Notes: generated by a model not told the origin, from the letters alone. Shown: positions 26,091 to 45,817, counted from the stretch's first letter. The stretch is 64,000 nt of DNA from an uncultured Pseudomonadota bacterium (GCA_963843375.1 CAWJKT010000014.1:128001-192000), one strand, 5' to 3'. Program-made: numbers and translations.

Positions 26091-26165
26091 GGCCCCATCG
26101 TCTAACGGTTAGGACGGATGGTTCTCAGCCATTAAATCGGGGTTCGATTCCCCGTGGGGCTACCA
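26091..26165 (+). tRNA. tRNA-Glu(CTC)
   Basis: GGCCCCA/TGGGGCT acceptor stem, D arm, anticodon arm GATGG-TTCTCAG-CCATT, GGTTCGATTCC T-loop, encoded CCA. Confidence 0.97.
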
Positions 26166-26208
26166 TTATTTTGAAGCCGGGTAATGATTTTGGAAGGTGA
26201 GAGCTCTA

Positions 26209-26226
26209 AATCTAATCCTGATCTAA
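26209..26226 (+). repeat. Arm-like paired motif AATCTAATCCT-GATCTAA (copy 1)
   Basis: GATCTAA starts 60 bp after the GGGGC of the tRNA 3' end. Confidence 0.7.
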
Positions 26227-26530
26227 CGTTCTTTCCTTGGATTAAGGGTTCTCTTAATAAATAGTTTCTTCATTTTGCCCACTTTTTAAATCCTACGTGT
26301 CGTTACCCTAGTTGGTCATATATATAGATAGAAATAGCAAAATTTTGACCGATTTTTTTCCTTAGTCTTCCTTTTGATCTAAATTTTATTCTAAAACAAT
26401 ATATTTTGAAGGTCTTTTTTAAAGTCTCCCCTCATTTACACTTATTAAGACATGATATTTAAACCTGATTTTGACTAGGTTACGCTTGGAATAGTTAGTT
26501 GAATAACCAAAAAAAGCTTGTTAATTCCTC

Positions 26531-26592
26531 TTGTTACACTTCGGTCGAAGCATAATGGCTATAACTAAGATTCCAATCTATTTTTGATCTAA
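26531..26592 (+). repeat. Collapsed junction relic: TTGTTACACTTCGGTCGAA plus AATCTATTTTT-GATCTAA, without att core
   Basis: 17/19 match to TTGTTACGCTTCGGACGAA at 34204, followed by the arm-like pair. Confidence 0.5.
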
Positions 26593-26918
26593 TATTTTTG
26601 TTCTAATCTCATTTTGAGCCATTACCGCTTGGGTTAAAAACGCGTTAAGTAACCGTTATCCACGACGAGGCCCGGATTGGATTGAAAGTGTAGAATGCTG
26701 ACTCTGATTCGTAGGTTGAATTACTGATAGAGACACACTTTGGCGCAATGAAATTAACCCTTTTTGGGTGGGTTTGGAGATGGTTATTATTTTTGGGTTC
26801 TTTATTGCAATTCCTGTCAGGATCAATCAGAATCCCGCTCAAGTTTTTAAAGAAGACCGTTGCCGCGGTCCGGCGATCATTAAATTAAATTCATTGGTTT
26901 GAGTTTTAACTTAATCGG

Positions 26919-29900
26919 GTGTTCGAAATGCTCTGCGACTCAAAAACCGATCCTCTCCCTTATCGTCCGTATCCTTTCGTAAATTTTTTTTTCGCCGTAC
27001 TTTTATTTTATGTTTTATTCATCCCCCGCCTCCTTTTCGCTCAAACCGCTCCCGTCACGGTCAATAGTATCAGTGGGGGCACGGGGACAGGAACCTTCAA
27101 CGATTCCTTCAACGCCATTAACGCCCAGAGCGGCGGCGGAACCATTCAGCTGAATCTTCCCTATAGTTCCAACCTCATTGTGGAAAGCCTTCAATGGGCT
27201 CCGGTCACCCAAAACCTTACCCTCTTGACCACGTCTCCCGTGATCGTGGAAACGGGAGGAATCAACTTAAACGGTAACAGTTTCCTCAGTTTCGGCAATT
27301 TGACGGTGGGATCGGGCATTACTTTTACCTTCTCCAACCTAGATGCCGCCACCAACGGCAATCCCCAAAACGTCATCAGCGATTCCGCTTCCTTAACTTT
27401 GACCTCCCTTACTTTAAACTCAGGTTCAGCTTTTGGGATTGAATACGGGGCGGAAGGCGATGGAGCGACTGGGCAGCCGGGCGATACGGGGGCCTTTGGC
27501 GGATCAGCCTTTGTCACCGTGAGTGGCGGTGTGAGCGTCAATTCGGGTTCTGAATTTTATGACGTCGCCGGAACTGGCGGGGACGGCGGAGGAGCCGCCG
27601 TGGGTAACGGCGGCAACGCTGGAAACGGCGGTAACTCAAGTCTGGGGGCGGGTTCCATGTTCGTCCAAGGATCGGGCGCGGTGGCGGTCATCCAGGGTGG
27701 TGATGGTGGTCCTGGGGGGGACCCAGGCGTAGGTTTTGTCAGCGGCACCGGTGGTAGCGGCGGGTCAGCTTCGGCAACGGTGGGTTCACTCAACATCGCC
27801 CAGGGCGGGTCGGTGAGTGTCATTGGTGGCACGGGCGGAAATTCCTACAACGAAGGAAACACGGGTGCGGGGGGTTGGGCAAGTCTTGCGGATAATTCGG
27901 TTTCCGTCGGTCAGGCGACGCTGGAAGTTCAGGGCGGTGCCGGCGCCGACAATGGGTATGGAGGTTCCAACGGGGGATCGGCGACCCTGGTGGTTTCGGG
28001 TGCGATCAGCGTGAGCGGCTCCTTGGTAAGCGTATCCGGGGGTAGCGGCGGCAACGGCGAAAGCAACCCGGGGGGCGGTTACAATGGCTCCAACGGCGGG
28101 ACCGCCTCCGCTTCGGCGGGCTCTCTCGTTTTGCAAAGTTCTTCCTTCGATGTGCTGGGTGGGCAAGGCGGTTCGGGCGGCAATGGCCCCGAAGGCAATT
28201 CCCCCACGGGAACCAACGGCAATAGCGGTGGCGACGGCGGAGCCGGAGGAGCAGGCGGCTCGGGCGCTAACGCAAGCGTGAGTCTGGGTACTTTGACAAC
28301 GAGCGGTTCCGGAGTCACTTTGGAGGTCATTGGTGGCACCGGAGGAAATGGTGCAACCGGCGGCGGCGGCGGCAACGGCGATTCGGGTGATTCAGGAGGA
28401 GATTCCAACGGTCTTTCCGGTTCCGGATCAGGGAGTCCCGGTGGCGGCGGCGGAACTGGCGGCGGCGGCGGCAACAGCGGTGCCGGGGGAAACGCCGCAT
28501 TAACGGCAACTACCTTCACTCTTAATTCCACAAATTCATTTTTTGATATCCAGGGTGGCAATGGCGGTAACGGAGGTGTTGGGGGACAGGGAGGATCCGG
28601 GGGATTGGGCGGCAATGGAGGCAGCGGTTCGGGAGGTTATGGCGGCAGTAACGGCGCTTCAAGTGGAAATGGTAATTGGGGCGGAGTTGGAGGCTATGGG
28701 GCGGGAGCTGGGAACGCCTCCGTGAGCCTGGTTTCCTTCACCATGTCCGGGGCGGGAGACGAGTTTTCGGTTACCGGAGGCAATGGCGGCAATGCGGCGC
28801 AAAGTGGCGCCGGTGGAAACGAGCCGTCCAACAATGGGTCAACGATTTATGACTCAGGAGGCAACGCCGGGGGTGCCTTTGTAAACGGCGGCGAAGGTGC
28901 ATCCGCCGGCACGGCGGGAAACGGTAATGTCGCACAGGATGGCGGCGACGGTGGCAGCGCTTTGGTCACCATGGGTTCCATCACCCTTGGAACGGCGGGA
29001 GTGACGACCGCCACTCTCTTCAACGTCATCGGCGGCAACGGCGGTTCCAACGGCATCGGCAGCAATGGCGGTGACGCCTCTGTTGCTTACGGGGGAAATT
29101 CCGGCAATGACAACGCCACACTCAGCAATGGATTCCAGGGAGGAACCGGTGGTAATGGCGGAGCGGGGGGGGCCGGGGCCGGTGACGACGATTTCGGCCT
29201 GGGTGGAAATGCCTCCGTGGTTTCTGGCAGCATCACCCTTTTTTCGGGGGCGGATTTCAACGTTCAGGGTGGGGCAGGGGGAGTAGTCACGACAATCGGT
29301 GGGGCGACTATTGTCGAAAGTGGCGGCGCAGGTGGCTACGCCGGAACGGCCGGTACGGGCGGCGGCGGTAGCTGGCTTTATGGCGCTTGCGACACTTGTC
29401 AAACGGGCAATGGGGGTGATGGCGGCTCAGCGCAAGGGGGCGGCGCGGGCGGCGATGGCAGTGACGGAGGAAGTGCGGCGGTTTCAGCGGGAAGTTTACA
29501 AATGGCCTCAGCGGTCACTTTTACGGTGATTGGGGGAGAAGGTGGATGGGGTGGACAGGGAGGCAATGGCGGCGTTGGCGGCGCGGGCGGCGCGGCTGGT
29601 GGAATGGGTTCGGCCACGGACAGCTATGGTGGAAACGGGGCATCGGGTTCCTCAGGAGGTTACGGGAATCTCGGCGGCGAGGGTGGAGCAGGGGGCGCGG
29701 CGGCGTTGGCCCTTGGAAACCTAAGCCTGGGTGCATCGGACAGTATCGCGATTCAGGGCGGAAGCGGAGGCAATGGTGGCGGGGGTGGAGCTGGCTACGC
29801 CGGTGGCGCGGGCGCTGATGGGGCAAGTGCCTCCAGTACCGGTCAAGGCGGAGGTGACGGTGGCAACGGCGGTGCGGGCGGATCCGGTGCGGGCGGCGGT

Positions 29901-32900
29901 GATGGCGGTGACGGCGGATCGGCGACTTTGCTGGTCACGGGTGCGGTCAGCCTTTCCCAGGGAGACAACTTTTCCATAATAGGTGGCGGGGGCGGTGCCG
30001 GCGGTGCGGGCGGCGAGGGGGGTACCGGTGGAAACGGCGCTAATGGCGGCAATGGAGTTTTAGACACAGCCGGTGCGGGCGGCACGGGTGGAGACGGGGG
30101 TTTTGCCGGTTCTGGCGGTGCTGGCGGTAATGGCGGCGACGCTCTTGTGACGTTGGGTTCCTTGGCGATGGCGGATGGAGGCGTCACACTTACGATCCAG
30201 GGTGGCGTGGGCGGGCAGGGTGGAGTGGCCGGTGCCGCTGGAAGTGCCGGAACCGCAGGTAATCCCGGAGGGGGTTTTGGGAACAACGGGGCCCCTGGCG
30301 GATCGGGTTTATCTCCGGGTAGCGGTATCCCTGGTGGTTACGGAGGCTTCGGTGGCTTCGGTGGCGAAGGGGGAAGCGCCTCCTTAACCGTCGGGTCTCT
30401 CACCGTCGGTCAGGACGACTCGCTGGACATTATGGGAGGAAATGGGGGAGTGGGAGCCAACGGCAATGACGGTACCACTGCTACTGGGGGCTCCAACGCC
30501 ACTCAAAGTTGTTGCCAAGGGGCTTCTGGCGGGACCGGAGGCGATGGCGGTTGGGGAGGTTATGGTGGAGTTCCCGTGACCTATCTTTCCAACGGCCAAA
30601 CCATCACCGAAATAGTATCAGGGGGCGATACTTACCTGGCGGTTTATGGAACGGCCAGCCTGGCTTCCGGCTCGATCGTCAACGTGGTTGGTGGTGCGGG
30701 AGTAACGGGCGGTTCCGGTGGATCAGGCGGTTCCGGCGGATCGGGTGCGAGCGGAGGGACCGGAGGCGACGGTGGCGCAGGCGGCAACGGGGGTCTTGGC
30801 GGGGGCGGCGGAAACGGTGGAAGCGCATCGGTGAGCCTGGGTTCTCTTCAGATGGCAAAGGGCGTGACTTTCAATGTGATTGGCGGGATTGGGGGAGAAG
30901 GCGGAGCCAGCGGTTCCGGGGCTCCCGGTGGAATAGCGGGTGCGGCGGTGACTTCCGGTTCAGGAGCCCAGTGGGTCAATTTAGGATTTACCCTGCTTTC
31001 CCTGGCCTTGGCTGCGACCAATCCCGCAAACGCCGAATTGGTCTTCGCCAATAAAATGATTGGTTACGAATTAAAGGCAGCTCAAAACGCCACCAAACTT
31101 CTCAGCCTGGGCCCTAACAACAATAGTAACCCGGATATCCCCACCAATGGCCCCGGCGGGCCTTGGGGCGGAGGTGGAATCGGCGGCAACGGAGGTGACG
31201 CTTCATTCACTTCGGCCCTGGTGAACATGGATTCGACATCGGCCTCCAATGACGACCTGCTGGTGGTGAAGGCGGGGGATGGTTTCATCGGCGGATATGG
31301 CGGGGGGCCGGGGGTCACGGTCGTGGGTCAAACTCCGGGTTTGACGGGCCCGGGCGGCCAGGGCGGTGACGGTGGGACGGCATCGGTGAGTCTGGGGACC
31401 CTGGAGATGGGAACGGGCTCGGGGGTCAGCGTCATTGGCGGCGATGCGGGTGACGGTGGAGCGGGCTTTTATATCAATTCCGCGAGCGACGCGGTCGGGG
31501 CGGGCGGTCAGGGCGGCGTCGGCGGAGACGCGGACGTGACAGTCGGTTCCCTCATGATGAACGCCGCAGGGATGTGGGTGACTGCGGGAGCGGGTGGAAC
31601 CGGCGGGACGGGTGGAGACGGCAATAATGGCGGGAACGCTTTCGTCGCCCTGGGTTCCCTCAACGCCTCCGGGGGCTCCACGGTCTTAGTGGCTGCGGGA
31701 TCGGGCGGCAACGACAACACCGTGGGCAGCGGCGGTGCGGGTGGATTCAGCGGTTTTAGCGCGGACAGCGTGACCCTTTCCTCCTCCATCCTCAATATGA
31801 TCGGAGGCAGCGGCGGGAGCGCCGTTTCGAATTCCGGCGGTTTAAACGGGGCCGATGGCGGCAGCGCAGCCATGACGGTCGGGCAGACGCTGGTGGTTTC
31901 CAATTCGACCTTGTCAATACAGGGGGGCCAAGGCGGTAACGCCTTCCAATACAACAATGGCACAGGTGGCGTGGGCGGCGGGGCCAGTCTGGCGGCGGCC
32001 ACCCTCAACTTATCCTCAGGTTCAATCAACTTGTTGGCTGGCAATGGCAATGCCAGTGGTGGACAGCAAACCGGTGCCCTGGGAGGCACGGCCTATTTGG
32101 CCGCTAACAGCGCCTCGATAAACGGATCTGTAATCCTCCAGGGAGGCAACGGTGGCAACGGTGGTTCAGGGCTCACGAATCCTTCGACCTCGGGCGGGAA
32201 CGGCGGGATTGGCGGGGACGCTTTGGTAACCCTGGGCTCCCTTTCGATGGGCTCTTCGGGTTTACTGCAGGTCACGGCGGGCGCGGCGGGCCTGGGCGAG
32301 GTTGACGGAACCAACGGGACTGCTGGCGATGCGACCATCATGATCGGATTCCTGGACGGGTCGGGAACTGTGACAATGAGTGGAAACATCCTTACGCTCC
32401 AGGTGGATAACGGGTATTTCAGCGGGGTAATCGCGGGCAATGAGGGGCTGGAGGTCGGCGGAGGGGCGCTAACTTTAGCTGGCGCCAATACCTATAGTGG
32501 CGGAACAACTTTGGAAAGCGGGGTCCTCGCCCTTTGGAACGACAACGCCCTAGGCACGGGCGGTTTGATGGTTACCAACGGAACCTTGGAAGTCGGGAAC
32601 GGGTTGGCAGTTTCGATTGGGGGAAATTACACTCAATCGGCTGGAGCAACTCTTCAACTGAATTTGGGAGGCGTGTTATCGGGCAGTTCGGATGGCCTGA
32701 GGGTGGCCAATACGGCTACTTTGGGCGGGGACTTGCAATTGGTTTCCGGCAATGGGGCCTTCTTCCAGGCCCATGGCCTGGAGACCTTCGAAATATTATC
32801 GGCCGGTACGGCCGTGACTGGAACCTTCGCTGGGCTGGTGGAAGGAATATCTGCTAATTCGGTTTCGCTGGTTTACGAACCTAAGGAAGTATTGTTGGAG

Positions 32901-34073
32901 TTGACGGGCCCGACTTTCCAGTCCTTGGGTTTGACCACAAACCAACAGGCGGTGGGCGGAGCCCTGGACGGCCTGAATAAGAGCGGGGCCAACCCGAACC
33001 TGTTGGGAGTCCTGGACACGATCGTGAACTCGTCACTACCGGGGGTCTATAACCAAATATCGCCCGCGGATTTGACGCCCTTGTATCAGATGGGCTTCGC
33101 TACTTCCCAGGCCGAGGCGGGGATGATAAACCAGCGGTTGTTCCAATTGTTCGGCAATCCGGCGTCCGAGTCCAGTGACGTTTCTTGGAACGGGGAAGGT
33201 CCTCGGTTCGCCGCCAATATGCCGCCTTCGCAGGAATCGGGAATGATCCAGGACCTTGAGCCCCAGCGCTGGAGCGCTTTTGTCAACGGCATGGGCAACT
33301 TCGGGACCGTCACCGGCGACTCGAACGCCCCGGGTTATCAATATTCAATCGGCGGCATGACCGCTGGATTGGATTACCGCTTCTCCAAAGATTTGGTTGG
33401 CGGGGTGTTGTTTGGTTACAGCCAATCGGGCACCAGCCAGTCTACCGGTACAGTGAATGCGACGGGCGGGCAGGTGGGCCTCTACGGAGGATGGAAACGA
33501 GATTCTCTTCACGTGGAAGCCCTAGCCGAAGGCGGTACCAATAATTACATCACCCAGAGAATAGCCTTGGGCGGTACCGCTGCGGGAAATACCCAGGGAG
33601 AGATGGTTTCGGGCCAACTGGGTGCCGGATACGATTTGAAAGTGGATCAAATGAAGGTCGGACCTTTTGTGTCGGGTCAGTACACCCATGTGAGCATCAA
33701 CGGCTTCAACGAAACGGGCTCCCTGGCGCCTTTGAGTTTCGAGGCACAAGGTGAAAGTTCTTTGACCAGCGACCTGGGGGCATCGACTAGCCGCAACTGG
33801 GATTTGGGCGGCGTCCGATTATCCCCGGCCCTCAGCGTGGCCTGGGAGCATGTGTACCAGGGTAACTTGGACAGCCTAGCGGCCAGTTTGGATGGCGGAG
33901 GGAACTTCACCGTCAGCGGACCTTCCACGGGAACCAATGCGGCGGTCATCGGGGCCGGTTTGAATCTGGGATTCGAAAAGGGCTTAAATGCCTTCGTCCA
34001 ATACCAGGGCAAGGTGGGCCTGGCCGATTACGCGGAACAAAACCTCTCGGGTGGTGTGAATATAGTATTTTAA
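26919..34073 (+). CDS. Giant Gly-rich autotransporter (type Va) adhesin-like protein
   Basis: Signal peptide; PGRS-like GGxGG passenger; PATR motif LTLAGANTYSGGTTLESG; autotransporter barrel (GMTAGLDYRF...LSPALSVAWEH) ending in F. Confidence 0.92.
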   Translation: MFEMLCDSKTDPLPYRPYPFVNFFFAVLLFYVLFIPRLLFAQTAPVTVNSISGGTGTGTFNDSFNAINAQSGGGTIQLNLPYSSNLIVESLQWAPVTQNLTLLTTSPVIVETGGINLNGNSFLSFGNLTVGSGITFTFSNLDAATNGNPQNVISDSASLTLTSLTLNSGSAFGIEYGAEGDGATGQPGDTGAFGGSAFVTVSGGVSVNSGSEFYDVAGTGGDGGGAAVGNGGNAGNGGNSSLGAGSMFVQGSGAVAVIQGGDGGPGGDPGVGFVSGTGGSGGSASATVGSLNIAQGGSVSVIGGTGGNSYNEGNTGAGGWASLADNSVSVGQATLEVQGGAGADNGYGGSNGGSATLVVSGAISVSGSLVSVSGGSGGNGESNPGGGYNGSNGGTASASAGSLVLQSSSFDVLGGQGGSGGNGPEGNSPTGTNGNSGGDGGAGGAGGSGANASVSLGTLTTSGSGVTLEVIGGTGGNGATGGGGGNGDSGDSGGDSNGLSGSGSGSPGGGGGTGGGGGNSGAGGNAALTATTFTLNSTNSFFDIQGGNGGNGGVGGQGGSGGLGGNGGSGSGGYGGSNGASSGNGNWGGVGGYGAGAGNASVSLVSFTMSGAGDEFSVTGGNGGNAAQSGAGGNEPSNNGSTIYDSGGNAGGAFVNGGEGASAGTAGNGNVAQDGGDGGSALVTMGSITLGTAGVTTATLFNVIGGNGGSNGIGSNGGDASVAYGGNSGNDNATLSNGFQGGTGGNGGAGGAGAGDDDFGLGGNASVVSGSITLFSGADFNVQGGAGGVVTTIGGATIVESGGAGGYAGTAGTGGGGSWLYGACDTCQTGNGGDGGSAQGGGAGGDGSDGGSAAVSAGSLQMASAVTFTVIGGEGGWGGQGGNGGVGGAGGAAGGMGSATDSYGGNGASGSSGGYGNLGGEGGAGGAAALALGNLSLGASDSIAIQGGSGGNGGGGGAGYAGGAGADGASASSTGQGGGDGGNGGAGGSGAGGGDGGDGGSATLLVTGAVSLSQGDNFSIIGGGGGAGGAGGEGGTGGNGANGGNGVLDTAGAGGTGGDGGFAGSGGAGGNGGDALVTLGSLAMADGGVTLTIQGGVGGQGGVAGAAGSAGTAGNPGGGFGNNGAPGGSGLSPGSGIPGGYGGFGGFGGEGGSASLTVGSLTVGQDDSLDIMGGNGGVGANGNDGTTATGGSNATQSCCQGASGGTGGDGGWGGYGGVPVTYLSNGQTITEIVSGGDTYLAVYGTASLASGSIVNVVGGAGVTGGSGGSGGSGGSGASGGTGGDGGAGGNGGLGGGGGNGGSASVSLGSLQMAKGVTFNVIGGIGGEGGASGSGAPGGIAGAAVTSGSGAQWVNLGFTLLSLALAATNPANAELVFANKMIGYELKAAQNATKLLSLGPNNNSNPDIPTNGPGGPWGGGGIGGNGGDASFTSALVNMDSTSASNDDLLVVKAGDGFIGGYGGGPGVTVVGQTPGLTGPGGQGGDGGTASVSLGTLEMGTGSGVSVIGGDAGDGGAGFYINSASDAVGAGGQGGVGGDADVTVGSLMMNAAGMWVTAGAGGTGGTGGDGNNGGNAFVALGSLNASGGSTVLVAAGSGGNDNTVGSGGAGGFSGFSADSVTLSSSILNMIGGSGGSAVSNSGGLNGADGGSAAMTVGQTLVVSNSTLSIQGGQGGNAFQYNNGTGGVGGGASLAAATLNLSSGSINLLAGNGNASGGQQTGALGGTAYLAANSASINGSVILQGGNGGNGGSGLTNPSTSGGNGGIGGDALVTLGSLSMGSSGLLQVTAGAAGLGEVDGTNGTAGDATIMIGFLDGSGTVTMSGNILTLQVDNGYFSGVIAGNEGLEVGGGALTLAGANTYSGGTTLESGVLALWNDNALGTGGLMVTNGTLEVGNGLAVSIGGNYTQSAGATLQLNLGGVLSGSSDGLRVANTATLGGDLQLVSGNGAFFQAHGLETFEILSAGTAVTGTFAGLVEGISANSVSLVYEPKEVLLELTGPTFQSLGLTTNQQAVGGALDGLNKSGANPNLLGVLDTIVNSSLPGVYNQISPADLTPLYQMGFATSQAEAGMINQRLFQLFGNPASESSDVSWNGEGPRFAANMPPSQESGMIQDLEPQRWSAFVNGMGNFGTVTGDSNAPGYQYSIGGMTAGLDYRFSKDLVGGVLFGYSQSGTSQSTGTVNATGGQVGLYGGWKRDSLHVEALAEGGTNNYITQRIALGGTAAGNTQGEMVSGQLGAGYDLKVDQMKVGPFVSGQYTHVSINGFNETGSLAPLSFEAQGESSLTSDLGASTSRNWDLGGVRLSPALSVAWEHVYQGNLDSLAASLDGGGNFTVSGPSTGTNAAVIGAGLNLGFEKGLNAFVQYQGKVGLADYAEQNLSGGVNIVF

Positions 34074-34237
34074 AAGAACAAGGGTTTTATCAGCCAACCG
34101 ATTCCTAAGTTAAAAGGGCGGGGCCGAATGGCATCCGTCCTTTTTTGTGAGTTCAAAGTTAAAATGTTTGTCCGCGACGGGGACCCATCGTGGACAGGTA
34201 AATTTGTTACGCTTCGGACGAAATGTACCGGGATTTC

Positions 34238-34316
34238 TTCCCCGTGGGGCAACCGAAAAGCCCTGAGAATACTCTGCCCTTTGTAACCCTGAATCTACGA
34301 TCTAACTTTGATCTAA
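34238..34316 (+). repeat. att-like copy of tRNA-Glu 3' end plus arm-like pair (copy 2)
   Basis: TTCCCCGTGGGGCAACC (16/17 to 26148-26164); GATCTAACTTT-GATCTAA at 34299-34316, offset 60. Confidence 0.85.
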
Positions 34317-34358
34317 CGACTTCAGCTGCTTCGATTGCGGCTCGGCCTCGGTCGCCAC

Positions 34359-34572: not shown

Positions 34573-34857
34573 ATGATAAATCCGAAGAAGCTGGTAGAAG
34601 TAGTTGCTTCTAAGTCGGTTGGCGGGAAACTTGAAAGATTAAAAGAGATAGATAAACCTAGATACGATTTTGTTAAAAAAGTCCTCCAGGACTTTAAAGA
34701 AAAGTACCCCATCGGTGACAAGGTACAACTTCATCCGGTTAATACCGACGGGACCAGGAATTTTGTGGCGGATAGCGGATATAACGTTACCTTCGCGGGC
34801 TGGGCGGAGGAACTTCCGAACAAACATTTGGTCCATATTGAAAAGCTCTTTTTTTAA
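34573..34857 (+). CDS. Small protein, possible divergent RelE/ParE-fold toxin
   Basis: 94 aa; strand-helix-helix-strands pattern (VEVVASKSVGGKLERL...YDFVKKVLQDF...LVHIEKL); context matches the 36031 unit. Confidence 0.45.
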   Translation: MINPKKLVEVVASKSVGGKLERLKEIDKPRYDFVKKVLQDFKEKYPIGDKVQLHPVNTDGTRNFVADSGYNVTFAGWAEELPNKHLVHIEKLFF

Positions 34858-34934
34858 CCTCTTGGGGTGTCGAAAATCATTCTCCCTACCTGTTGTGGGT
34901 TGTTCTTATTTTCCATTTGTTAACTTGATAACGG

Positions 34935-34964
34935 TTGTTTAAGTATTACATTTAGTAATACAAT
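34935..34964 (+). promoter_or_regulatory. Promoter with AGTA(T/A)TACA direct repeats
   Basis: AAGTATTACA 34941, TAGTAATACA 34953, TACAAT 34959. Confidence 0.55.
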
Positions 34965-35072
34965 TCAGTTGACGATGATTTAGAACATATGTATAGTTTC
35001 GAAAATTTTGTTAAAAGTGGAGTGGAGGGAAGAAATTTAATTGGAAACAAGATGTGAAAGGAGATGGTGGTT

Positions 35073-35443: not shown

Positions 35444-35485
35444 AATCAATAAATTTAGGATAAAAGCATTCCATGTTGAGATCTC

Positions 35486-35563
35486 TTCCCGGTGGGGCTA
35501 CTAATTGTCTAAGTGGCCCAACGGGTTTGGCAACTTCCAGTTCTTGATCTTCTTTTGATCTAA
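35486..35563 (+). repeat. att-like copy of tRNA-Glu 3' end plus arm-like pair (copy 3)
   Basis: TTCCCGGTGGGGCTACT (15/17); GATCTTCTTTT-GATCTAA at 35546-35563, offset 59. Confidence 0.8.
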
Positions 35564-36626: not shown

Positions 36627-36852
36627 TGAAGAAAAGGAGGAGAAGATAGCAGACGAGAATTTGAAAATTGAAAAAGGAGGCAGTAAAATATCTTTCGAAA
36701 TTGAGCGTGTTATTGCTAAACACGTCCCTTTGAAATTTGTTAAGGCGAATAGCAATGAGGCTGTGGAATTAGAAGAATCCATTAACCGTTCTAAGAAAAA
36801 GGGTGGATGGCTTTCGATCAAGGAATTAATGAAAAAACATCATATTCACTAA
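36627..36852 (+). pseudogene. N-terminally truncated third antitoxin paralog
   Basis: EEKIADE...IERVIAKHVPLK...KKKGGWLS aligns with SEKIHHE...ITKVVVEHLGVK...RKKKWIS of 36309 but lacks the RHH N-terminus. Confidence 0.5.
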
Positions 36853-36985
36853 ACGCAATGTTTGGGATGGAGAAGCAAAGAAGGGCTAAAATTTGCTTTG
36901 CGAAAAGTTAGCGGAAATTGAACCCTATGAAGACAGAGTAATGTTTTCACGGGGTTTTTCTTTTTTGTCTGATCAACCTGTAGCC

Positions 36986-37380
36986 CACAACAGATTAGTC
37001 CAGGTGAGTTATCTCAACGGCCAACCTCTAGGGGTGGCCAACACCATCAATATGACCTATGACGGAATGGGCAGAAGGTCGAGCATCACGGAAATCGACG
37101 CTGGTGGGAACACCATTGCGGCCAAGACCTACGTGTGATGCGGGAAAACGCTATGCCAGGAGAGAGACAGTACAGGGACAGCGGTTATGAAGCAGTTCTT
37201 CAGCCGAGGGGAGAGGATAGGGACCAGTAATTACTACTACGCCAAGGACCACCTAGGGAGGATTAGAGAGTTAACGGATATCAACGGGACAGTACAGGCA
37301 ATCTACGACTATGATTCTTTTGGGAACCAGACAATTCTGTCTCAAAATATCCCGACGGATTTTGGTTATGTGGGATTCCA
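36986..37380 (+). pseudogene. Rhs/YD-repeat core fragment with in-frame TGA
   Basis: TYDGMGRR...TYV*CGKTLCQERD...YYYAKDHLGRIRELTD..G...YDYDSFG. The two track ORFs are in frame across TGA 37136-37138, where Trp is expected. Confidence 0.85.
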
Positions 37381-38026
37381 TCATCAAATCTTCCAGGGAA
37401 TTTCGGGGAGCGTCACACTTTTCGACCGCCTTTTTGCCCTCTCTAGACCGTCACGCTATTGGACCGGCGTTTACAGTTGTTCACGACCGGTAAAATCAGC
37501 AGACACAATAAATAGCGAATTTGCACAGACACCCCTTTGGTGAAGTTTGAGAAATCATATGGTATTAATTCGCTGAGTAAAGAAAAAAGTTTCAGCAGTC
37601 AGAAGATGGGCTTATTTGATTGAATTAACGAGTTCACCGAGAAAAATAAAAACTTAATATTTATAAGCCGTGATATTCAAAGAAAAAGTCATTTCCCGTA
37701 TGTAGGCCGTCGAGCGACAATGCTTATTTGTTGGCCAAATTCGATTCGGAAACCATCTGGAGAATATCCGACGGCATTTTCAGGGAACCGGTCAAATCTT
37801 GTGAGATACCGTGAATTTGGGGAAGATGTCTAAAGTAGGATGTCGGACCGGAAATTCATGTGAATGTTAAAATTTTGGCGATTTTATCTTTTTGTCTCAA
37901 TTTCGATTTCTTGTGGGCCTGCCATCAAGAAGGTTGGTTTTGAAACTCGTATTATGGCCGACTTTTTCATTCTCGAATTATTTCATTGCCTTAATTCAAC
38001 TTTTGAATTCAACCCTAAGTAGGCGC

Positions 38027-38058
38027 TTGACACTGGAGTATACTCCAGTGTCTATACT
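38027..38058 (+). promoter_or_regulatory. MerR-type promoter/operator
   Basis: TTGACA-20 bp-TATACT overlapped by the perfect 24-bp palindrome GACACTGGAGTATACTCCAGTGTC (38029-38052). Confidence 0.9.
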
Positions 38059-38076
38059 TATAACTCGGATGAATAA

Positions 38077-38442
38077 ATGAAAACGGATAAAACAATATTT
38101 CGAATCGGGGAAGTTTCAAAGAAAAGCGGCGTGTCAATCGACACCGTCCGCTTTTATGAAAAGATAGGTTTGCTAAAAAAAGCTAACCGGAGCTTTGGGG
38201 GGTTCAGGACTTATTCACAGGTTGTGGTTGATCAATTGCTCTTCGTTCGCAAGGCGCAGGAGATGGGGCTAACGCTTAAAGAGATAAGAAAGATTATGTG
38301 TTGTGGCGATAAAGGTTTGGGGCCCTGCTGCGACCTGACGGTTGAAGTATTCACGGCGAAAATTAAAGAGTTTGAGGATAAAATCCGGGAAATTCAAAAA
38401 ATGAAAAAAATGTTAAAAACGGTTTTGGGTGATGGGTCGTAA
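38077..38442 (+). CDS. MerR-family metal(loid)-responsive regulator
   Basis: FRIGEVSKKSGVSIDTVRFYEKIGLL...R.Y; Cys pairs C75-C76 and C84-C85. Confidence 0.92.
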   Translation: MKTDKTIFRIGEVSKKSGVSIDTVRFYEKIGLLKKANRSFGGFRTYSQVVVDQLLFVRKAQEMGLTLKEIRKIMCCGDKGLGPCCDLTVEVFTAKIKEFEDKIREIQKMKKMLKTVLGDGS

Positions 38443-38497
38443 AGAAAAAGAAATTTCAATTTCACACATCTTCATTTGGCGGAAATCATTGAATTCA

Positions 38498-39181
38498 ATG
38501 AACGGTGTCCTGCTGAAAAAATCTTTAGCCGAAGTTATCGGAACTTTCACCCTCGTGTTCTGCGGGTGTGGAAGCATCATGGTGGCAGAGAGGTTCCCTG
38601 GAACCCTTTCCCATGCCTCCATATCGGTCATCTTCGGTCTTGCGGTTGCGGTCATGATCTATGCGGTGGGCCATATTTCGGGTGCCCATTTTAACCCAGG
38701 TGTCACCTTGGCCTTTGCCATCGCAAGGCATTTCCCATTCCGGGAAGTTCTGGTTTATTGGATGGCCCAGTTTTCAGGGGCGTTTGCGGCAATCGGTGTA
38801 TTAAAACTGATCCTTCCCCCCGGTAATTCATATGGGGCAACTTTTCCTTCCGTCCCGATGTTAGCGGCTTTGACTTGGGAAATCATCCTGACCTTTTTTC
38901 TCATGTTTGTGATCGTTGCTGTGGCAACGGATACAAGGGCAGTCGGCACTATGGCTGGAGCGGCCATTGGAGGGACTGTCATGTTGGCAGCTTGGGTAGG
39001 GGGACCGGTCACCGGGGCCTCCTTGAATCCCGCCCGGTCATTGGCTCCCGCGGTTTTTGAAGGAAGATTGGATGAAATGTGGATTTACCTTGTAGGCCCT
39101 TGCATAGGCGCAGTCCTGGCCGCATTATTTTATGAGACCATCCGAATGACACCTACAAACGAAAAAAACGACAAGGAGTAG
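38498..39181 (+). CDS. MIP-family aquaporin/aquaglyceroporin, probable arsenite channel
   Basis: [10 protein letters not shown] and [12 protein letters not shown] motifs; NIP-like; directly upstream of arsC. Confidence 0.92.
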
Positions 39182-39185
39182 GTTC

Positions 39186-39587
39186 GTGAAAAGGATATTG
39201 TTCTTGTGCGTTGCAAATTCAGCCAGAAGCCAAATGGCTGAGGGGCTGGCCAAAAATCTTTTCGGTAATGATACCGTGATCCAAAGTGCTGGTTCCAGGC
39301 CTTCCGTAGTAAATCCAATTGCTATCAAGGTTATGGAGGAAATTGGCATAGATATTTCCAACCATCGTTCCAAATCTGTAGAAGAGATCGATCCAGCTTC
39401 GGTAGACACTGTTATTACGCTTTGTGCTGAAGAAGTTTGTCCTGTTTTCTTAGGAAAGGCGGAACGCCTTTATTGGCCATTGCCGGATCCAGGTCTTGGA
39501 AAAACTACTGATGAAGAGAAGCTCCAAAGTTTTAGGGAAGTTCGTGATGCGATTCTTGGTCGACTGAATAGCATCAAGTCGAGATAG
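39186..39587 (+). CDS. arsC: Thioredoxin-coupled arsenate reductase (LMWP family)
   Basis: [14 protein letters not shown]-loop; TLCAEEVCP redox Cys pair; WPLPDP. Confidence 0.92.
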
Positions 39588-40084
39588 GGCTAGAATTTAT
39601 CAATGGGTTGATTTCAACTAAATGCTTCAATGCGTATTAATTAAAAAAACTTTCACCATTGAGCATTTAAATTGCTATTGTTTTTAAAATTCGGTATCCA
39701 TGACTGGACGCGTCTATCAATGTTCGTTTTAATTTTATTAAGAGATAAGTTGGGTCGATTCTGTAATTTAATAAGTGGTGAAACCGATGGTTTCAGTTTA
39801 GTCCCTTATTGAACCAAACTAGGCAAGTGCAGAAAATTTGTCTTTTTTTGTCAGTTTTTTATTTCTTTTTCCTAATTTAATGTGAAACCGCTTTTTTAGA
39901 AGATTTCCACTGAAAAGTTAACTTTTACAATTGTTTATCGAGAAAATCGTTAAATTAAGCCAATTCAGAATAAGGCATCATTATTGCAACTAATTTAATT
40001 AAGTTTCATTTTAGAATTCCCTAAAATGGGTGATAAATAAGTCTTTGGAAACCCCTGGAATCGTTTTATGGGCAAAAGGTAAAG

Positions 40085-43000
40085 ATGCCAGACAAGAAAA
40101 AAACTATGAACAACGGCCAAGAAAAAAATTCCTTTAAGGGCTATTGCCGGTTTTTTAGGCGGGGAACGGGCACGGTATTACCAGTTCTTTTTTTCTTCTT
40201 TGCGCTTATTTCCCATCTGCAAGCTCAAATTAATTACGGCACGGCTAATTACAATTCCGCCACCTACACCTATACATCTATCGCGACCGCTTATGCTCCA
40301 TCCGGGGCGGGAGCTTGCGGTTTTCCGGCAGGGTCAGACCCGACACTTACAGCAGCTATCAACTCTAACTCCGGGGGCGGGGGTGACGATTATCAAAACG
40401 GTTTAGCTTGCGGAGCCTGCGCGGCTTTAACAGTAACGGGGGATGCGGAAGCCATCACGGTGATGATTGATAATAGCTGCCCCTCTTGTACTGTTGCCGA
40501 CCAATTGGATTTGACGCAAGCGACATGGCAGGCATTGACAGGTGATACAAATTATGGACAGCTCAACATTGAATGGAAATTTGTCGCTTGTCCTTTAAGT
40601 CTTATGGCCGGTGATTCTTCGGGCGATATCACGTACGAATGGAAGTCGGGATGCAGTTCCGGTTATGACCCCATCCAATTTATGGATACTTTGTTTCCTA
40701 TTATAAGCGTGAGTTATAGTACTGCCAGCGGAGGGCCTTATACTGCACTGACCCTTGGGGCAAATGGAGTGGGCGGGAACAATTACTGGGGAACCACCAG
40801 CGGCAACTTGAACGGAACCACGGGCCCCTTTTATTTTGACGTGACGGATGGCGCGGGAGGTTCAGTCACGATCGGTCCTCTTACCGTGGCCAGCTGCGGT
40901 ACCGTCAGCGCGACCAGCGTCCAAGTTCCCGGTCCCGGGCCTACCGCTACACCCACCAAAACAAATACACCAGGCGGACCCACCAATACACCTACGGCTT
41001 TACCGACTGACACCGCCACCCCCGGTACTGGGTGCGGTTATGATACGAATTCCGGTGCAGCCTGCACTTTCACCCAAAGCACCTCCTCTGACAATTGCGT
41101 TACCTCAAGCTCCGCCGCCAGCACGGAAGCCATCAATCAGTTCTATAGTTATGGGGCCTCTGGCGTGTCTGTTCTTTACTGCGGTGGGAGTACGGCCGGC
41201 GCGAACGCATCGCCACAAGTGATTACCATGCAATGTTCTCCACCTGCCGGCGCCACAATCCAAGCGGCATTTTTGGATGTGGTGGAATATAACAGCAGTG
41301 GAACCCCAGCCCCTTCCACGGGAGCCGTAGTTTTAGGAGGTAAAACGACCGCGGCCGGAACGATGACCGGTAGTGGTAATCTCTGGAATGTATTTAATGA
41401 CCCGAGGTATGGATATGACATTACCAGCTATCCCGATCAAACGGCCTACAATATCCGCTACAATGTCACCAGTGATGTTTCTTTGTCAACGAACAGCTAC
41501 ACCGTTACTTACCCCAACATTGGCTCGAATACGGCATGGTCCGCCTCCTTGGTGATCGTCTACACGATTCCGGCTCCCAACGTCTGTGGAGCGGTAGCCC
41601 TAGATGACGGTCTTTTTTATTGGGATACGGGAGATGGAAACCTTCGAGAAGGCGTTACTCCCTATGCTCCGACAGTAGATTGGAGTTGCACGGATCCCAC
41701 CACAAGTTGCGGCACCAACAATTTTTCTGTTTTTGGAGGCAGCCAATACGGGCTTAATAGCAGTCAAACCCCGCCATTTACTGATAATTTTTACGGATCA
41801 ACTACGGGTGGAACCGCTGTTTCTTCCACTGACGCAACCGAATGGAGCAACTGCACCGCCCTGGGAACCTGCGGCCAGCCGACGGCTTTTGATCAGACTT
41901 ACACAGGAGTAGCCACGTCGGGGACAAATAAGATCACCTGGGGCTTAGGGGATCCCATCACCACGAACAAACAAGAATATTGGGTTAACATGTTGGCGGC
42001 TGGCTGTAACGCCACCTGCAATACCCCTACACCGACACCTACCCCGACGCGCACCAATACCAACACGCCCGTACCAACACCCACTTCAACGAATACGACC
42101 ACGGCCACCAGTTCGGCGACTGCCACTTCGACCCATACGACTACTTCAACCGTAACCTCAACCAGTACCAATTCCGTTACCTCAACGGCAACCTCAACCA
42201 AAACGAACACTTCAACGGCGACCGCTGTCGCAACGGCTACCGCCACAGCCGTGCCCCCTACGGCAACCGCAACCGCCGTGGCAACCGCTACAGCCGTTTC
42301 CACCTCTACCCCAACGCCTGTCCCCACTGCTACGGCTGTGGCTACGGCTGTTCCGGCTACCGCTACAGCTACCGTGGCAGTTCCCACTTCCACGTCCGTG
42401 GCTACGGTTGTGCCTCCCACGATGACCTTTACCGCCACAGTTGTCGCGACCAACACCACTGTGGCCACGGTCGTAGCTCCAACTGTTCCACCTACGAATA
42501 CAGCTGTCAACACCGCAACGGCGGTGCCAACCTCCACGGTCACAAATACCTTTACTCCATCGAATACAAAGACCGCCACTAATACAGCTATTGCCACCAA
42601 CACCCCAACCAATACTTTAACGGCTACCAATAGCTTTACTTTTACCGGGACTAGGACTCCCACCAATACTTACACTGTTACGAATACCCCGACGGTAACC
42701 AATACCTCGACCAATACTTTAACGGCTACCAATAGCTTTACTCTTACGGATACTAGGACTCCCACCAACACTAACACGGTTACGAATACCCCTACGACAA
42801 CCAATACCCCAACAAACACTTTTACATCTACTAATAGTTTTACTCCAACCGATACGAAGACACCCACTAACACACCCACCCTTACCAACACTCCGACCTC
42901 AACCAATACTGCCACTACCACTTTTACGCCCACGAACAGTTATACGCTTACGGACACAAAGACCCCTACCAACACCGCCACTAACACTAATACTCCTACC

Positions 43001-44620
43001 GTCACCAATACCTCGACCAATACCTTTACAGCTACCAATAGCTTTACTCTTACGGATACCAGGACTCCCACCAACACTTACACGGTTACGAATACCCCAA
43101 CGGCTACTAATACCCCGACAGATACCTTTACACTTACAAATACACACACACCTACTGTAACTTTTACCCCGTCCAATACACATACGGAAACCAATACTCC
43201 CACCGAGACCGATACGCCGACACCCACAAAAACAGCAACGAATACGGCGACAGCGACGGCAAGCTCGACGCCGACTGCGACTTATACTTTCACGCCGACT
43301 TACACTTTCACCTACACTTCAACCCCGACCTTTACCTTTACGCCGACGCCGGGGGTGAGCATCGTGAAGAAAGCCTCGGAAACGGTGGCGAATTCGGGAG
43401 ACTTGGTGACTTATAGCCTGATCCTGAACGTGGTGGAAGCGGCGGCCAGTTCGGTGACGGTGACGGACGTTCTTCCGGCGAATATGACGTTCAAGGGCTT
43501 CGCGTTGGTGCCGCCGGGTGGAGTGACGAGCGCGGTGGGCAATGACTTGAGCTGGACTTTCCCCAGCTTGCCGGTGGGAGCGGTGACGCTGACGTACCAG
43601 GCGGTAGTGGGGAACTTGCTGGCGGGCGGGACGGTCTTGACGAACAACGCGCAATTGACCTATGCGGGCAACCCGGTGCCGCAGAAGGCGTCGGTGAACA
43701 TCACGATCGCGTCGCTTTATAAGGTACAAGTGGCGGTGTACAACGCGGCGGGAGAACTGGTGGACGAGATATCGGTGGAGGAAATGTCCCAGGAAGTGAC
43801 CAGTTTCAGCCTGTCAGGGGCGACGATTACGAGCCTGGAAGGGAAGACGTACGTGGAAGTGGGTGGGGAGATCATCGCGTCATGGAATGGGCTGAACCAG
43901 TCGGGGACGCCGGTGACCAATGGCACTTATTATGTGAATGTGACGAGCACGGACCCCTATGGGTCGGTGACGAACGTATCGCAGACGGTGACGGTGAGCC
44001 GCTCGATCGCGCAGGTGATAGTGGATGTGTACAACGAGGCGGGTGAAGTGGTGAAGCATTTGTATAGCTACGCGGATGATCCCGGGAATGAATCCTTGGG
44101 GTCGGTGGCGTTGTCGACAGGAATGATCGCGCCGAATATCGGGACGCCGACCCCTGGCGGGAACAACTCGGTGACGATCACGTTCAATGGGACGTCGGTG
44201 GTATGGAATGGGACGAGCGATAGCGGTGGGATCGTGACGAACGGGGTGTATGAGATTGAGGTGAACTGGACGAACGGGAGCGGAGGCCAGCAAGTGGTGA
44301 CGAAGTCGGTGATTGTCCAGCAAGGGAACAGCCCGGTGACGAACGGCAAGGTGTACGCGTCTCCGAACATTCTGAAGGGCGTGAGCTCGACGATGGTGAA
44401 GGTGAATCCGACGACGACGGCCTTGACGCTGACGGTGAGCTTGTACGATGTGGCGGGAGAATTGGTGAAGAAGCCGGTGACGGGAGTCCCGGGTGCCAAC
44501 GAGACGAATCTGGACGTGTCGGGATTGGCCAGCGGCCTATACGTGGTGGTGGTGAACCTGAGCGATCTTAACGGCGACTTCATCCAAAAGCAGACCATCA
44601 AAATCGTCGTCCAGCGGTAA
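40085..44620 (+). CDS. Expansin-domain exoprotein with Cys-rich domain, Thr/Pro stalk, DUF11, FlgD-Ig and T9SS-like CTD
   Basis: GACGF, AAIN, NGLACGAC, DNSCPSC, LDLT, IEWKFVACP (expansin DPBB domain); C-terminal module similar to 15084. Confidence 0.88.
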   Translation: MPDKKKTMNNGQEKNSFKGYCRFFRRGTGTVLPVLFFFFALISHLQAQINYGTANYNSATYTYTSIATAYAPSGAGACGFPAGSDPTLTAAINSNSGGGGDDYQNGLACGACAALTVTGDAEAITVMIDNSCPSCTVADQLDLTQATWQALTGDTNYGQLNIEWKFVACPLSLMAGDSSGDITYEWKSGCSSGYDPIQFMDTLFPIISVSYSTASGGPYTALTLGANGVGGNNYWGTTSGNLNGTTGPFYFDVTDGAGGSVTIGPLTVASCGTVSATSVQVPGPGPTATPTKTNTPGGPTNTPTALPTDTATPGTGCGYDTNSGAACTFTQSTSSDNCVTSSSAASTEAINQFYSYGASGVSVLYCGGSTAGANASPQVITMQCSPPAGATIQAAFLDVVEYNSSGTPAPSTGAVVLGGKTTAAGTMTGSGNLWNVFNDPRYGYDITSYPDQTAYNIRYNVTSDVSLSTNSYTVTYPNIGSNTAWSASLVIVYTIPAPNVCGAVALDDGLFYWDTGDGNLREGVTPYAPTVDWSCTDPTTSCGTNNFSVFGGSQYGLNSSQTPPFTDNFYGSTTGGTAVSSTDATEWSNCTALGTCGQPTAFDQTYTGVATSGTNKITWGLGDPITTNKQEYWVNMLAAGCNATCNTPTPTPTPTRTNTNTPVPTPTSTNTTTATSSATATSTHTTTSTVTSTSTNSVTSTATSTKTNTSTATAVATATATAVPPTATATAVATATAVSTSTPTPVPTATAVATAVPATATATVAVPTSTSVATVVPPTMTFTATVVATNTTVATVVAPTVPPTNTAVNTATAVPTSTVTNTFTPSNTKTATNTAIATNTPTNTLTATNSFTFTGTRTPTNTYTVTNTPTVTNTSTNTLTATNSFTLTDTRTPTNTNTVTNTPTTTNTPTNTFTSTNSFTPTDTKTPTNTPTLTNTPTSTNTATTTFTPTNSYTLTDTKTPTNTATNTNTPTVTNTSTNTFTATNSFTLTDTRTPTNTYTVTNTPTATNTPTDTFTLTNTHTPTVTFTPSNTHTETNTPTETDTPTPTKTATNTATATASSTPTATYTFTPTYTFTYTSTPTFTFTPTPGVSIVKKASETVANSGDLVTYSLILNVVEAAASSVTVTDVLPANMTFKGFALVPPGGVTSAVGNDLSWTFPSLPVGAVTLTYQAVVGNLLAGGTVLTNNAQLTYAGNPVPQKASVNITIASLYKVQVAVYNAAGELVDEISVEEMSQEVTSFSLSGATITSLEGKTYVEVGGEIIASWNGLNQSGTPVTNGTYYVNVTSTDPYGSVTNVSQTVTVSRSIAQVIVDVYNEAGEVVKHLYSYADDPGNESLGSVALSTGMIAPNIGTPTPGGNNSVTITFNGTSVVWNGTSDSGGIVTNGVYEIEVNWTNGSGGQQVVTKSVIVQQGNSPVTNGKVYASPNILKGVSSTMVKVNPTTTALTLTVSLYDVAGELVKKPVTGVPGANETNLDVSGLASGLYVVVVNLSDLNGDFIQKQTIKIVVQR
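42608..43117 (+). repeat. Five tandem 102-bp (34-aa) coding repeats
   Basis: Unit TNTLTATNSFTxTDTRTPTNTYTVTNTPTVTNTS starts at 42608, 42710, 42812, 42914 and 43016. Confidence 0.85.
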
Positions 44621-44917
44621 GTGTAACCCATTAATGGGTAAAGCTGCGAAGTTTAATCCCTTGAATGTAAATCACCGGTGACCCTGAAAATGGGTTTTCA
44701 ATTGATATAGAAAGCTCGTGCCGGAAGTTATAACAAGTGAACCTAATGGCTTCTTATATAAAATATCCAAACTCCAAGTTTCCAATGGCTTGACCTATTC
44801 TATTTTGTGCCAATCAAAAGTTGTTTTTAGAAATCAAACTGAAACTTGGTTGATCAAAGTGATGTGTTAAAATTGGATAAATATTTATAGGGTTTGTATT
44901 TATCTGGAGGAGGTTTT

Positions 44918-45634
44918 ATGAAAAGGTTCTTGTCTGTTTTGTTCCTAATCTTCTTGCTTTATCAGAAAGTTTGGGGAAATGAATTTTACAATTCCGCGCC
45001 CGGATTTACGGTTCCAATTGGTTCCATCGCTTATTTAGGCGCCGGATACAACCCGCTACCAATCTGGAAAACGGGGAGCAGTAACACAACACTCAAAACC
45101 CGTGTGGTGCTGACTAATCCGCCTTCCAGCGCCCAGGCTATTTCCGAGGTGCAAGATGCGGTTATTAAAAACGCCGTAAAATGGAAACTTGATGTGGAGG
45201 CTGTTCCTACTGACATCGAGGACCAAAGAGCCTTGCTTCGATACATTTTTCATCCTGCTCAACCGGACAAGTTTCCATTTAGTTTAAAAAAACTTTCCTC
45301 CCTGGCAGGGGGGAAACCCTATGTCCTGATTGAACTGATCGATTATTACGCGACTTTCGGTTGTGGGGTTAATATCCGGGAATCGCAGGATGGAAAGAAG
45401 ATTAATTACTCCTTGAAGCGATCCATCCTGGAACAAAACGGGGGATTATTCAGCCAGCAGGGCTTCAACAAAGTGGGGGCTTTCGAGATTTTTCTCGTTT
45501 CTACCAAGGATGGAAGCCTTCTTTGGCAAGCCAATGGTTGCGATTCCTTTCAACATACTATTTTTAATTCCTTTAAGGATACTGCGGATCATGAGATGGA
45601 TAAATGCCTAAGGACCCTGGCGGGGAAAAAGTAA
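44918..45634 (+). CDS. Exported hypothetical protein
   Basis: GGAGGAGG RBS; signal peptide MKRFLSVLFLIFLL; LVSTKDGSLLWQA motif. Confidence 0.7.
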   Translation: MKRFLSVLFLIFLLYQKVWGNEFYNSAPGFTVPIGSIAYLGAGYNPLPIWKTGSSNTTLKTRVVLTNPPSSAQAISEVQDAVIKNAVKWKLDVEAVPTDIEDQRALLRYIFHPAQPDKFPFSLKKLSSLAGGKPYVLIELIDYYATFGCGVNIRESQDGKKINYSLKRSILEQNGGLFSQQGFNKVGAFEIFLVSTKDGSLLWQANGCDSFQHTIFNSFKDTADHEMDKCLRTLAGKK

Positions 45635-45733
45635 ACAGTGTCAAGAAAGGCGAGGCACCCTGGCTTTAAATAACCCTTACGAATCCCCGGCGTAGATGGA
45701 TAAATCCATTCCGGCTTAATCTGAAGCGCTTCA

Positions 45734-45817
45734 GGAGTTCTTCCTGTTGAGGAATCCAAGTGTCAAACCAGGGTATAGATATTGGCAGGCCCTTTTTACG
45801 ATCTTCTTTTGATCTAA
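45734..45817 (+). repeat. Degenerate att-like core plus arm-like pair (copy 4)
   Basis: GATCTTCTTTTGATCTAA at 45800-45817 is identical to 35546-35563; upstream GGAGTTCTTCCTG resembles GGATTTCTTCCCC; core 10/17. Confidence 0.55.

Follow-up and report, generated by a model that had tools for sequence, protein, structure and literature searches.

The window analysed here, a 64,000-nt stretch (G000:C14:128001-192000) of assembly G000 (4.05 Mb, 32 contigs, 80% complete), carries a single tRNA gene, tRNA-Glu(CTC), and, starting at its 3' end, an array of four units, each about 100 nt long and all in the same orientation. Every unit contains the tRNA 3' end or a copy of it (the core) and, to its right, a pair of GATCT-type direct repeats; cargo genes lie between the units (Table 1). 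tRNA-Glu(CTC) is located 3' of an M16 peptidase gene in 19 of 20 loci (G000 and 19 relatives), and its 3' end is identical to those of the sister species G001 (99% complete; M16 peptidase 84% identical in protein to that of G000) and of 17 family-level relatives. DNA synteny between G000 and G001 stops at 26180, about 15 nt past the tRNA, and is restored only at the right border, so that 26181-48716 constitutes a variable region, where G001 carries 58 kb of unrelated DNA instead. Inside the region, GC content varies as a mosaic between 0.36 and 0.66, vs about 0.50 in the flanks. Some 75 nt 3' of the tRNA can still be aligned between G000 and G001 at roughly two thirds identity (by eye), with the CCTGATCTA pair at an equal offset; the variable DNA therefore begins after the pair. 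The HI0933-like gene that comes next after the array was not found in the approximately 1.3 kb examined behind tRNA-Glu in each of the family relatives. An initial annotation, made from the same DNA, had placed a tandem array of integrase-less cassettes at 26148..45817 with an open-ended last segment. The units lie where it put them, but the region really ends at 48716: segment 4 (45826-48716) is closed by G001 synteny, and there is no fifth unit.

Table 1. Features of the tRNA-Glu(CTC) array (positions in the window)
Feature	Position	Strand	Description and basis
tRNA-Glu, anticodon CTC	26091..26165	+	array anchor; last 18 nt form the core; ARAGORN
Unit 1	26135..26238	+	tRNA T-arm and acceptor end, 44-nt spacer, then AATCTAATCCTGATCTAAC
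Arm-only partial copy	26340..26389	+	GTCTTCCTTTTGATCTAAA; cmsearch with R1, E 0.022, model positions 52-100; lies in non-coding DNA (750 nt) past unit 1
Arm-only partial copy	26567..26601	+	AATCTATTTTTGATCTAAT; cmsearch with R1, E 5.4e-4, model positions 68-102; nhmmer E 5.1
Segment 1	26919..34073	+	2384-aa glycine-rich repetitive protein; open reading frame, no Pfam family at E <= 0.01
Unit 2	34226..34326	+	core 16/17, left flank GGGATTTCTTCC, pair GATCTAACTTTGATCTAAC
Segment 2 (1.2 kb)	34573..35372	+	two small open reading frames, 94 and 102 aa; no Pfam family
Unit 3	35476..35573	+	core 15/17, left flank GAGATCTCTTCC, pair GATCTTCTTTTGATCTAAC
Segment 3	36031..45634	+	cargo from a small gene pair to a 246-aa open reading frame; Pfam
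Unit 4	45731..45825	+	core 10/17, left flank GGAGTTCTTCC, pair GATCTTCTTTTGATCTAAA
Segment 4	45959..48699	+	ArsR-family regulator, two AHSA1/SRPBCC proteins, MFS (major facilitator superfamily) transporter; Pfam
Right border of variable region	48717	.	synteny with G001 (C4:686764) restarts; unit absent

The 17-mer TTCCCCGTGGGGCTACC from the tRNA 3' end matched the window at 26148 without mismatch, at 34238 with one mismatch and at 35486 with two; three or more such matches occurred in none of 100 dinucleotide shuffles of the window (mean 0.29). In the whole assembly, the core was found at four sites when up to two mismatches were allowed, namely the three window copies and position 33758 of contig C9 (C9:33758), and the repeat pair was present 3' of all four. 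The fourth window copy, at 45741, retains 10 of the 17 positions and is weak on its own: 13 of the 141 GATCTAA sites of the genome reach 10/17 in a scan over 25 upstream offsets and 8 more score higher, with a chance of about 0.009 at three fixed offsets. We counted it as a unit because its 18-nt arm GATCTTCTTTTGATCTAA (at 45800) is identical to that at 35546, these being the only two copies in the genome, and because it shares the left flank RGA.YTCTTCC with copies 2 and 3. This flank is not found at the tRNA. Core recurrence, shared left flank, identical arms and a decay of the core that increases with distance from the tRNA (17, 16, 15 and 10 matches of 17) had all been read from the sequence in the initial annotation, and all of them held.

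GATCTAA is rare in G000, with 141 matches on both strands of 4.05 Mb, and seven of these fall on the + strand within window positions 26220-45811. The first repeat begins 61, 61, 60 and 59 nt past the first base of the core in units 1 to 4, within 1 nt of the offsets initially given (60, 60, 59 and 58), and the distal repeat begins at 72, 72, 71 and 70 nt. The pair has the consensus GATCTAAC with an 11-nt period, and a matching phage-type attachment (att) site, attP, would hold TTCCCCGTGGGGC followed by about 45 nt and the GATCTAAC pair. In all ten units aligned (from G000, G001 and three other records), the distal repeat is situated 70-73 nt from the core start; the spacers are dissimilar among the ten, and core and pair are conserved. 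Run with filters off, a sequence-only model recovered from the window the four units and two arm-only partial copies; the model was trained on the units themselves, and their high scores follow by construction.

Scanning all GATCTAA sites for an upstream core, together with an nhmmer profile search, brought the total in G000 to six units: besides the window's four there are C9:33758 and C9:89024, the latter with a 13/17 core. The profile, trained on those six, found no other unit in the assembly. The left flank of C9:89024 resembles those of units 2-4, unlike that of the tRNA. Among 99 genomes of the phylum, the model search matched G000, the G001 tRNA, G023:C47 and, as weaker full-length matches, G022, G002, G023:C20 and G015, and a pattern scan for the perfect pair with one mismatch allowed returned only G000 and G023:C47, the latter being a 98% copy of the C9 site. 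An exact-pattern scan (core, 40-60 nt, GATCTAAC) detected one locus in GTDB species genomes, a copy of the C9 site, and four loci in JGI metagenomes. Three of these five are copies or relatives of the C9 site (L031 and L034 match C9); the other two, L032 and L033, consist of tRNA-Glu, a terminator and the pair. The sole pair match on a viral contig (L074) is GC-rich, has no tRNA core and adjoins a DUF927 helicase gene; we rejected it as unrelated or due to chance. As a side observation, the M16 peptidase of G023 is only 67% identical in protein to that of G000 despite the approximately 98% identity between G023:C47 and G000:C9, and either bin may hold a misplaced contig. The C9:89024 unit (C9:89012-89699; L039 7011-7700) comes 37 nt after a cytochrome b gene; 370 nt further on there is another copy of the tRNA-Thr 3' fragment, followed by broken genes for type IV coupling proteins, and the region looks like a junction of core genes with ICE (integrative and conjugative element) remnants.

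To see how such a signature relates to integrases in the same genome, we used the 46 tRNA genes of G000 as a control set: three with a PF00589 integrase gene on the 3' side, five with one on the 5' side and 38 without an integrase gene within 1.5 kb. All three tRNAs with a 3' integrase (tRNA-Gln on C1, tRNA-Val on C4 and tRNA-Asp on C6) were followed at +45 to +82 by an exact 8-10-nt direct repeat with a period of 11-12, positioned inside the integrase reading frame or at most 15 nt from it, whereas such a repeat was present at 1 of the 38 integrase-free tRNAs, at 1 of the 5 with a 5' integrase and in 260 of 5000 windows of 130 nt taken at random (Fisher p 3.8e-4). Each integrase has a different repeat sequence at its tRNA. 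The core-plus-pair signature thus has the look of integrase-linked att sites in this organism, in agreement with the core and arm recombination signature first proposed for the array. An ICE on C9 (G000:C9:17035-32482, about 15 kb; L001, L028) provides a further att unit of the same build, composed of a tRNA-Thr 3' part, a perfect terminator hairpin and the pair GATCATCAAAGATCATCA, in four copies; this element carries a TraG-like gene, an HTH_17 excisionase-like gene and a gene for a 369-aa tyrosine integrase, and is 89% identical to G001:C4:230655-246041. The array pair also resembles lambda-type attP, with its core and P' arm-type sites for the N-terminal domain of the integrase, in having 7-8-nt direct repeats with a period of about 11 nt some 60-80 nt to one side of the core, and in that the pair sequence varies with the integrase; it differs in lacking an arm motif on the other (P) side, and binding of the pair by an integrase N-terminal domain is here a prediction. 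From this geometry, we infer that the array pair represents arm-type sites for a tyrosine integrase, and that an enzyme of this class made the junctions.

Region 26181-48716 is probably a stack of integrase-less island remnants, similar to cis-mobilizable elements (CIMEs), left by serial integrase-mediated insertion at tRNA-Glu(CTC). Each incoming element would have carried an attP made up of a copy of the last ~18 nt of the tRNA and an arm-type repeat pair 60-80 nt to the right. Insertion at the intact tRNA would push older residents outward, so that the tRNA-proximal unit would be the youngest and cores would decay with distance; the order of arrival may thus be read from the tRNA outward. 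Internal junctions carry an element-type left flank (RGA.YTCTTCC) and a right flank of the P' type, which is the arrangement expected of a tandem array. The elements keep cargo and att sites, with no recombination genes, and would move only with a cognate integrase supplied by another element.

The integrase itself was sought by several approaches. PF00589 has 14 matches in the whole G000 genome; none is on contig C14, and none has the array core beside it. G001 has eight matches, none of them in its island at C4:628-687 kb. Using 11 G000 integrases in tblastn, we found no integrase in the window, in 80 kb around the G001 tRNA-Glu, or at L032, L033, L035 and L070-L073; none of the five loci from the exact-pattern scans has an integrase in the DNA examined. 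A profile of the same 11 integrases, run against 509 six-frame pieces from 26000-49000, gave a best E of 8.5. The initial statement that the array has no integrase gene is therefore correct, and it can be extended to decayed integrases within the segments. No tyrosine integrase was found next to tRNA-Glu, and the only one near a unit elsewhere is that of the C9 ICE, 1.4 kb from C9:33758. We rejected it as the cognate enzyme. In the close relatives L031 and L034, the tRNA-Thr(TGT) site is intact and empty, and their homology to G000 starts 18 nt inside this intact gene; the ICE is inserted exactly at tRNA-Thr(TGT), which makes its enzyme a tRNA-Thr integrase. Elsewhere in the genome, three tyrosine recombinase genes stand in a row at G000:C8:95843-98242, an arrangement that we take to resemble recombinase-in-trio elements.

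Several observations weigh against serial insertion followed by decay. No integrase was found on either side of any of the ten units compared, and random decay should leave some pseudogenes, so the complete lack of remnants is unexpected. A cognate integrase for the array was detected neither in G000, in which absence is not proof at 80% completeness, nor in G001. No arm motif was seen in the left flanks of units 2-4, i.e., P arms are missing. A scan of 45900-49300 revealed no terminal unit at the right border, the best core match being at most 12/17 with no arm. The lack of integrase remnants, of a P-arm motif and of a terminal unit does not fit simple decay. In addition, metagenome contigs L032 and L033 each show an intact tRNA-Glu, a strong terminator hairpin (-18.2 and -10.4 kcal/mol, respectively), the pair and then ordinary-looking genes (for a porin in one case, and for ComEA, an epimerase and a glycosyltransferase in the other); the pair could accordingly be native to the region downstream of the tRNA instead of element-borne. 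Finally, the tRNA-Glu(CTC) site is apparently used by more than one type of recombinase, as described below.

The integrase-free state of ten units out of ten, with no remnants, is what would be expected if the segments were dedicated integrase-less cassettes, captured and reshuffled by an integrase encoded elsewhere, so that a tRNA att site would serve as the base of an integron-like platform. The same explanation accommodates the orientation of the cargo genes, all on the + strand and co-oriented with the units, the small size of segment 2, with 1.2 kb and just two small genes, and the conservation of core and pair in the face of divergent spacers. Nevertheless, we regard it as improbable. 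No integrase lies beside the tRNA, where M16 peptidase genes are found upstream, and no cognate one was found in G000 or G001. Segments 1 and 3 are multi-gene blocks of 8-10 kb, not single-gene cassettes. Among the 99 phylum genomes, the units are confined to G000, G001, the copy of the C9 site and four weak matches. Unlike attC sites, the spacers fold no better than shuffled sequences: for the six G000 units, the 45-nt spacer alone gave -2.0 to -6.6 kcal/mol with z of 0.4 to 0.9.

Evidence for movement was also looked for. Elsewhere in G000, the segments are represented only by paralogous gene pieces, none of them flanked by units. Contigs from four public runs (three studies) showed the same arrangement wherever they covered the locus, with no joint at any unit, and one 3393-nt contig bridged units 2 and 3 (33762-37154) unchanged; many contig joints at 28-32 kb fall in the repetitive glycine-rich gene. 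Because assembled contigs were used, and contigs drop rare variants, rare excision stays compatible with this result. The segments do delimit strain-specific cargo next to the tRNA, as the comparison with G001 indicates, and their order was the same in contigs of all four runs. The proposal of a family of non-autonomous, integron-like cassettes mobilised in trans was not borne out: G000 and G001 yielded no cognate integrase, none sits by the tRNA in the way that intI does by attI, no segment recurred between units, and the contigs had no joint at a unit.

The region behind tRNA-Glu was further compared among relatives. Seventeen of the 18 family-level relatives with the peptidase gene have tRNA-Glu adjoining it, and none of the 17 shows a GATCT pair within about 60 nt; a terminator-like hairpin with a T-run follows the tRNA in about 15 of these 17, by eye. 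Some family relatives, L007 (G022:C13) among them, have an additional tRNA-Glu copy in inverted orientation on the far side of the terminator, facing the first, and several further relatives keep only a remnant of the inverted copy, GCCCCACGGGG. C9:33758 keeps a longer tRNA-like stretch (24/25 nt), and four related records have it at a fixed place upstream of one and the same sigma-54 regulator. C9:33758 and L032 share, without a difference, 27 nt that comprise the T-run and the pair, although the M16 peptidase gene of L032 is only about 67% identical to that of G000 at the DNA level.

Such findings raise the question of whether the unit belongs natively to the tRNA-Glu locus as a 3' module, made up of the tRNA end, a terminator and a pair to which a host protein binds, and was copied without any integrase through decayed tRNA-Glu duplicates or through RecA-mediated Campbell insertion of circles with about 100 nt of homology. 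L032 and L033, with tRNA, terminator and pair all intact and ordinary genes behind, have the form of such a module; inverted copies and remnants in relatives show that duplicates exist in the family; and C9:33758, with its longer tRNA-like stretch in a fixed position, could be a decayed duplicate. Yet the pair is absent in 17 of the 18 family-level relatives with the M16-tRNA-Glu arrangement, and homology alone would not conserve core and pair while the spacer diverges. Moreover, tRNAs of other specificities that are occupied by integrases in G000 show this geometry too, and the left flank of units 2-4 differs from that of the tRNA. We consider this origin unlikely. That the spacer is a decayed terminator is at most a possibility: strong hairpins occur only in L032 and L033, the G001 hairpin is marginal, and the six G000 units are equivalent to shuffles.

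G015, a genome from a different genus, has a 6.9-kb island at this site, bounded by tRNA-Glu(CTC) and a repeated copy of the tRNA 3' end (L073, G015:C3, 9995-17004). One of its genes, for a large serine recombinase of 552 aa (domains Resolvase, Recombinase and Zn_ribbon_recom), has an open frame that runs into the tRNA; the island has no GATCT pair. With a recombinase gene abutting the same tRNA, this island lends some credit to the idea that a large serine recombinase, or some other non-tyrosine recombinase, that targets tRNA-Glu(CTC) produced the array junctions. The units in G015 are without the GATCT pair, however, and the G015 protein gave no tblastn match in the window and a single 32% match elsewhere in G000 (C9:137196-137972). 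Pfam revealed no serine recombinase among the array reading frames, and serine integrases are not known to use arm sites 60-80 nt from the crossover. An enzyme of this kind is very unlikely to have built the array. Insertion by a tyrosine integrase, with later loss of the recombination genes, remains our preferred explanation, and tRNA-Glu(CTC) itself is an insertion hot spot in this genus.

As initially described, the intervening segments of about 8, 1.2 and 10 kb hold unrelated cargo, and this cargo is strain-specific. Segments 1-3 are flanked by units on both sides and segment 4 on the left only. All cargo reading frames chosen as genes (26919-48699) are on the + strand. The C-terminus of the segment 1 protein has the look of an autotransporter barrel, by eye only, and the GC content of its gene is 0.58-0.66 vs about 0.50 in the flanks. 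The 3' 1.7 kb of this gene is 80% identical to G001:C4:616906-618629. The G001 homologue (C4:611482-618629) is located about 10 kb upstream of tRNA-Glu and the G000 copy downstream of it; the matching upstream place in G000 (15084-18476) is occupied by an unrelated 1130-aa gene. Directly 5' of unit 2, at 34168-34205, there is a palindromic repeat of about 35 nt with more than 15 copies in G001 (87-97% identity), which looks like a dispersed repeat of the REP (repetitive extragenic palindromic) type. In segment 2, the 102-aa product resembles ribbon-helix-helix antitoxins by eye, so the two small genes may form a toxin-antitoxin pair.

The cargo of segment 3 consists of a pair of small genes and an RHS fragment, genes for a MerR regulator, a MIP channel, an ArsC-type low-molecular-weight phosphatase and a secreted protein of 1511 aa, and a 246-aa open reading frame. 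Pfam matches were obtained for MerR_1 (E 1.3e-16), MIP (1e-56), LMWPc (2.7e-17) and FlgD_ig (1.1e-16); the RHS and PSK_trans_fac matches were below their curated cut-offs. The last 1.4 kb of the gene for the secreted protein (43190-44620) is 97.6% identical to G000:C7:106184-107614, which points to a recent exchange between paralogues. Variant letters in the public runs cluster in the same interval of the window (43190-44620).

Among known systems, the closest counterparts of the array are found around the ICESt1/ICESt3 relatives of Streptococcus thermophilus, where CIMEs devoid of integration and transfer genes keep their att sites and lie in tandem at the 3' end of the target gene, as a result of serial integration and decay (PMC5704250, which cites Pavlovic 2004 and Bellanger 2011). 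This source already describes, as CIMEs and tandem accretion of ICEs and IMEs, the process that the initial annotation had inferred. Both cases share integrase-less cargo, retained att sites and a tandem arrangement, here at a tRNA 3' end. The array differs in having at least four units in a row, no functional partner element at the locus and no known cognate integrase, and in belonging to an uncultured lineage, in which it is known from sequence alone. With integrons it shares an ordered, co-oriented cargo array with recombination-site-like repeats beside a fixed anchor, but the anchor lacks an integrase, attC-like folds are not formed by the units, the segments reach 10 kb and hold several genes, and no reshuffling was seen in the contigs of the four runs. 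Tandem tRNA islands of cultured bacteria are alike in that they start from an intact tRNA, have direct repeats of its 3' end from one island to the next and carry accessory genes (arsenic-type genes, surface proteins and toxin-antitoxin-like pairs). In those cases an integrase or pseudo-integrase, one at least, is usually retained; none is left in the 22.5 kb examined here.

The locus shows how accessory genes accumulate at a single tRNA gene in a lineage for which metagenomes are the only source; they include arsenic-type genes, giant surface proteins, toxin-antitoxin-like small pairs and transporters. A tRNA 3' core followed at +45 to +110 nt by a repeat pair with a 10-12-nt period provides a practical signature of island borders in these genomes. 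Only one feature departs from the textbook account, namely that every unit is completely without an integrase. Should an integrase acting in trans come to light, integrase-less gene capture at tRNA sites could be tested on this locus; capture in trans, if true, would make it a tRNA-anchored capture platform in an uncultured phylum and would explain the ten integrase-free units.

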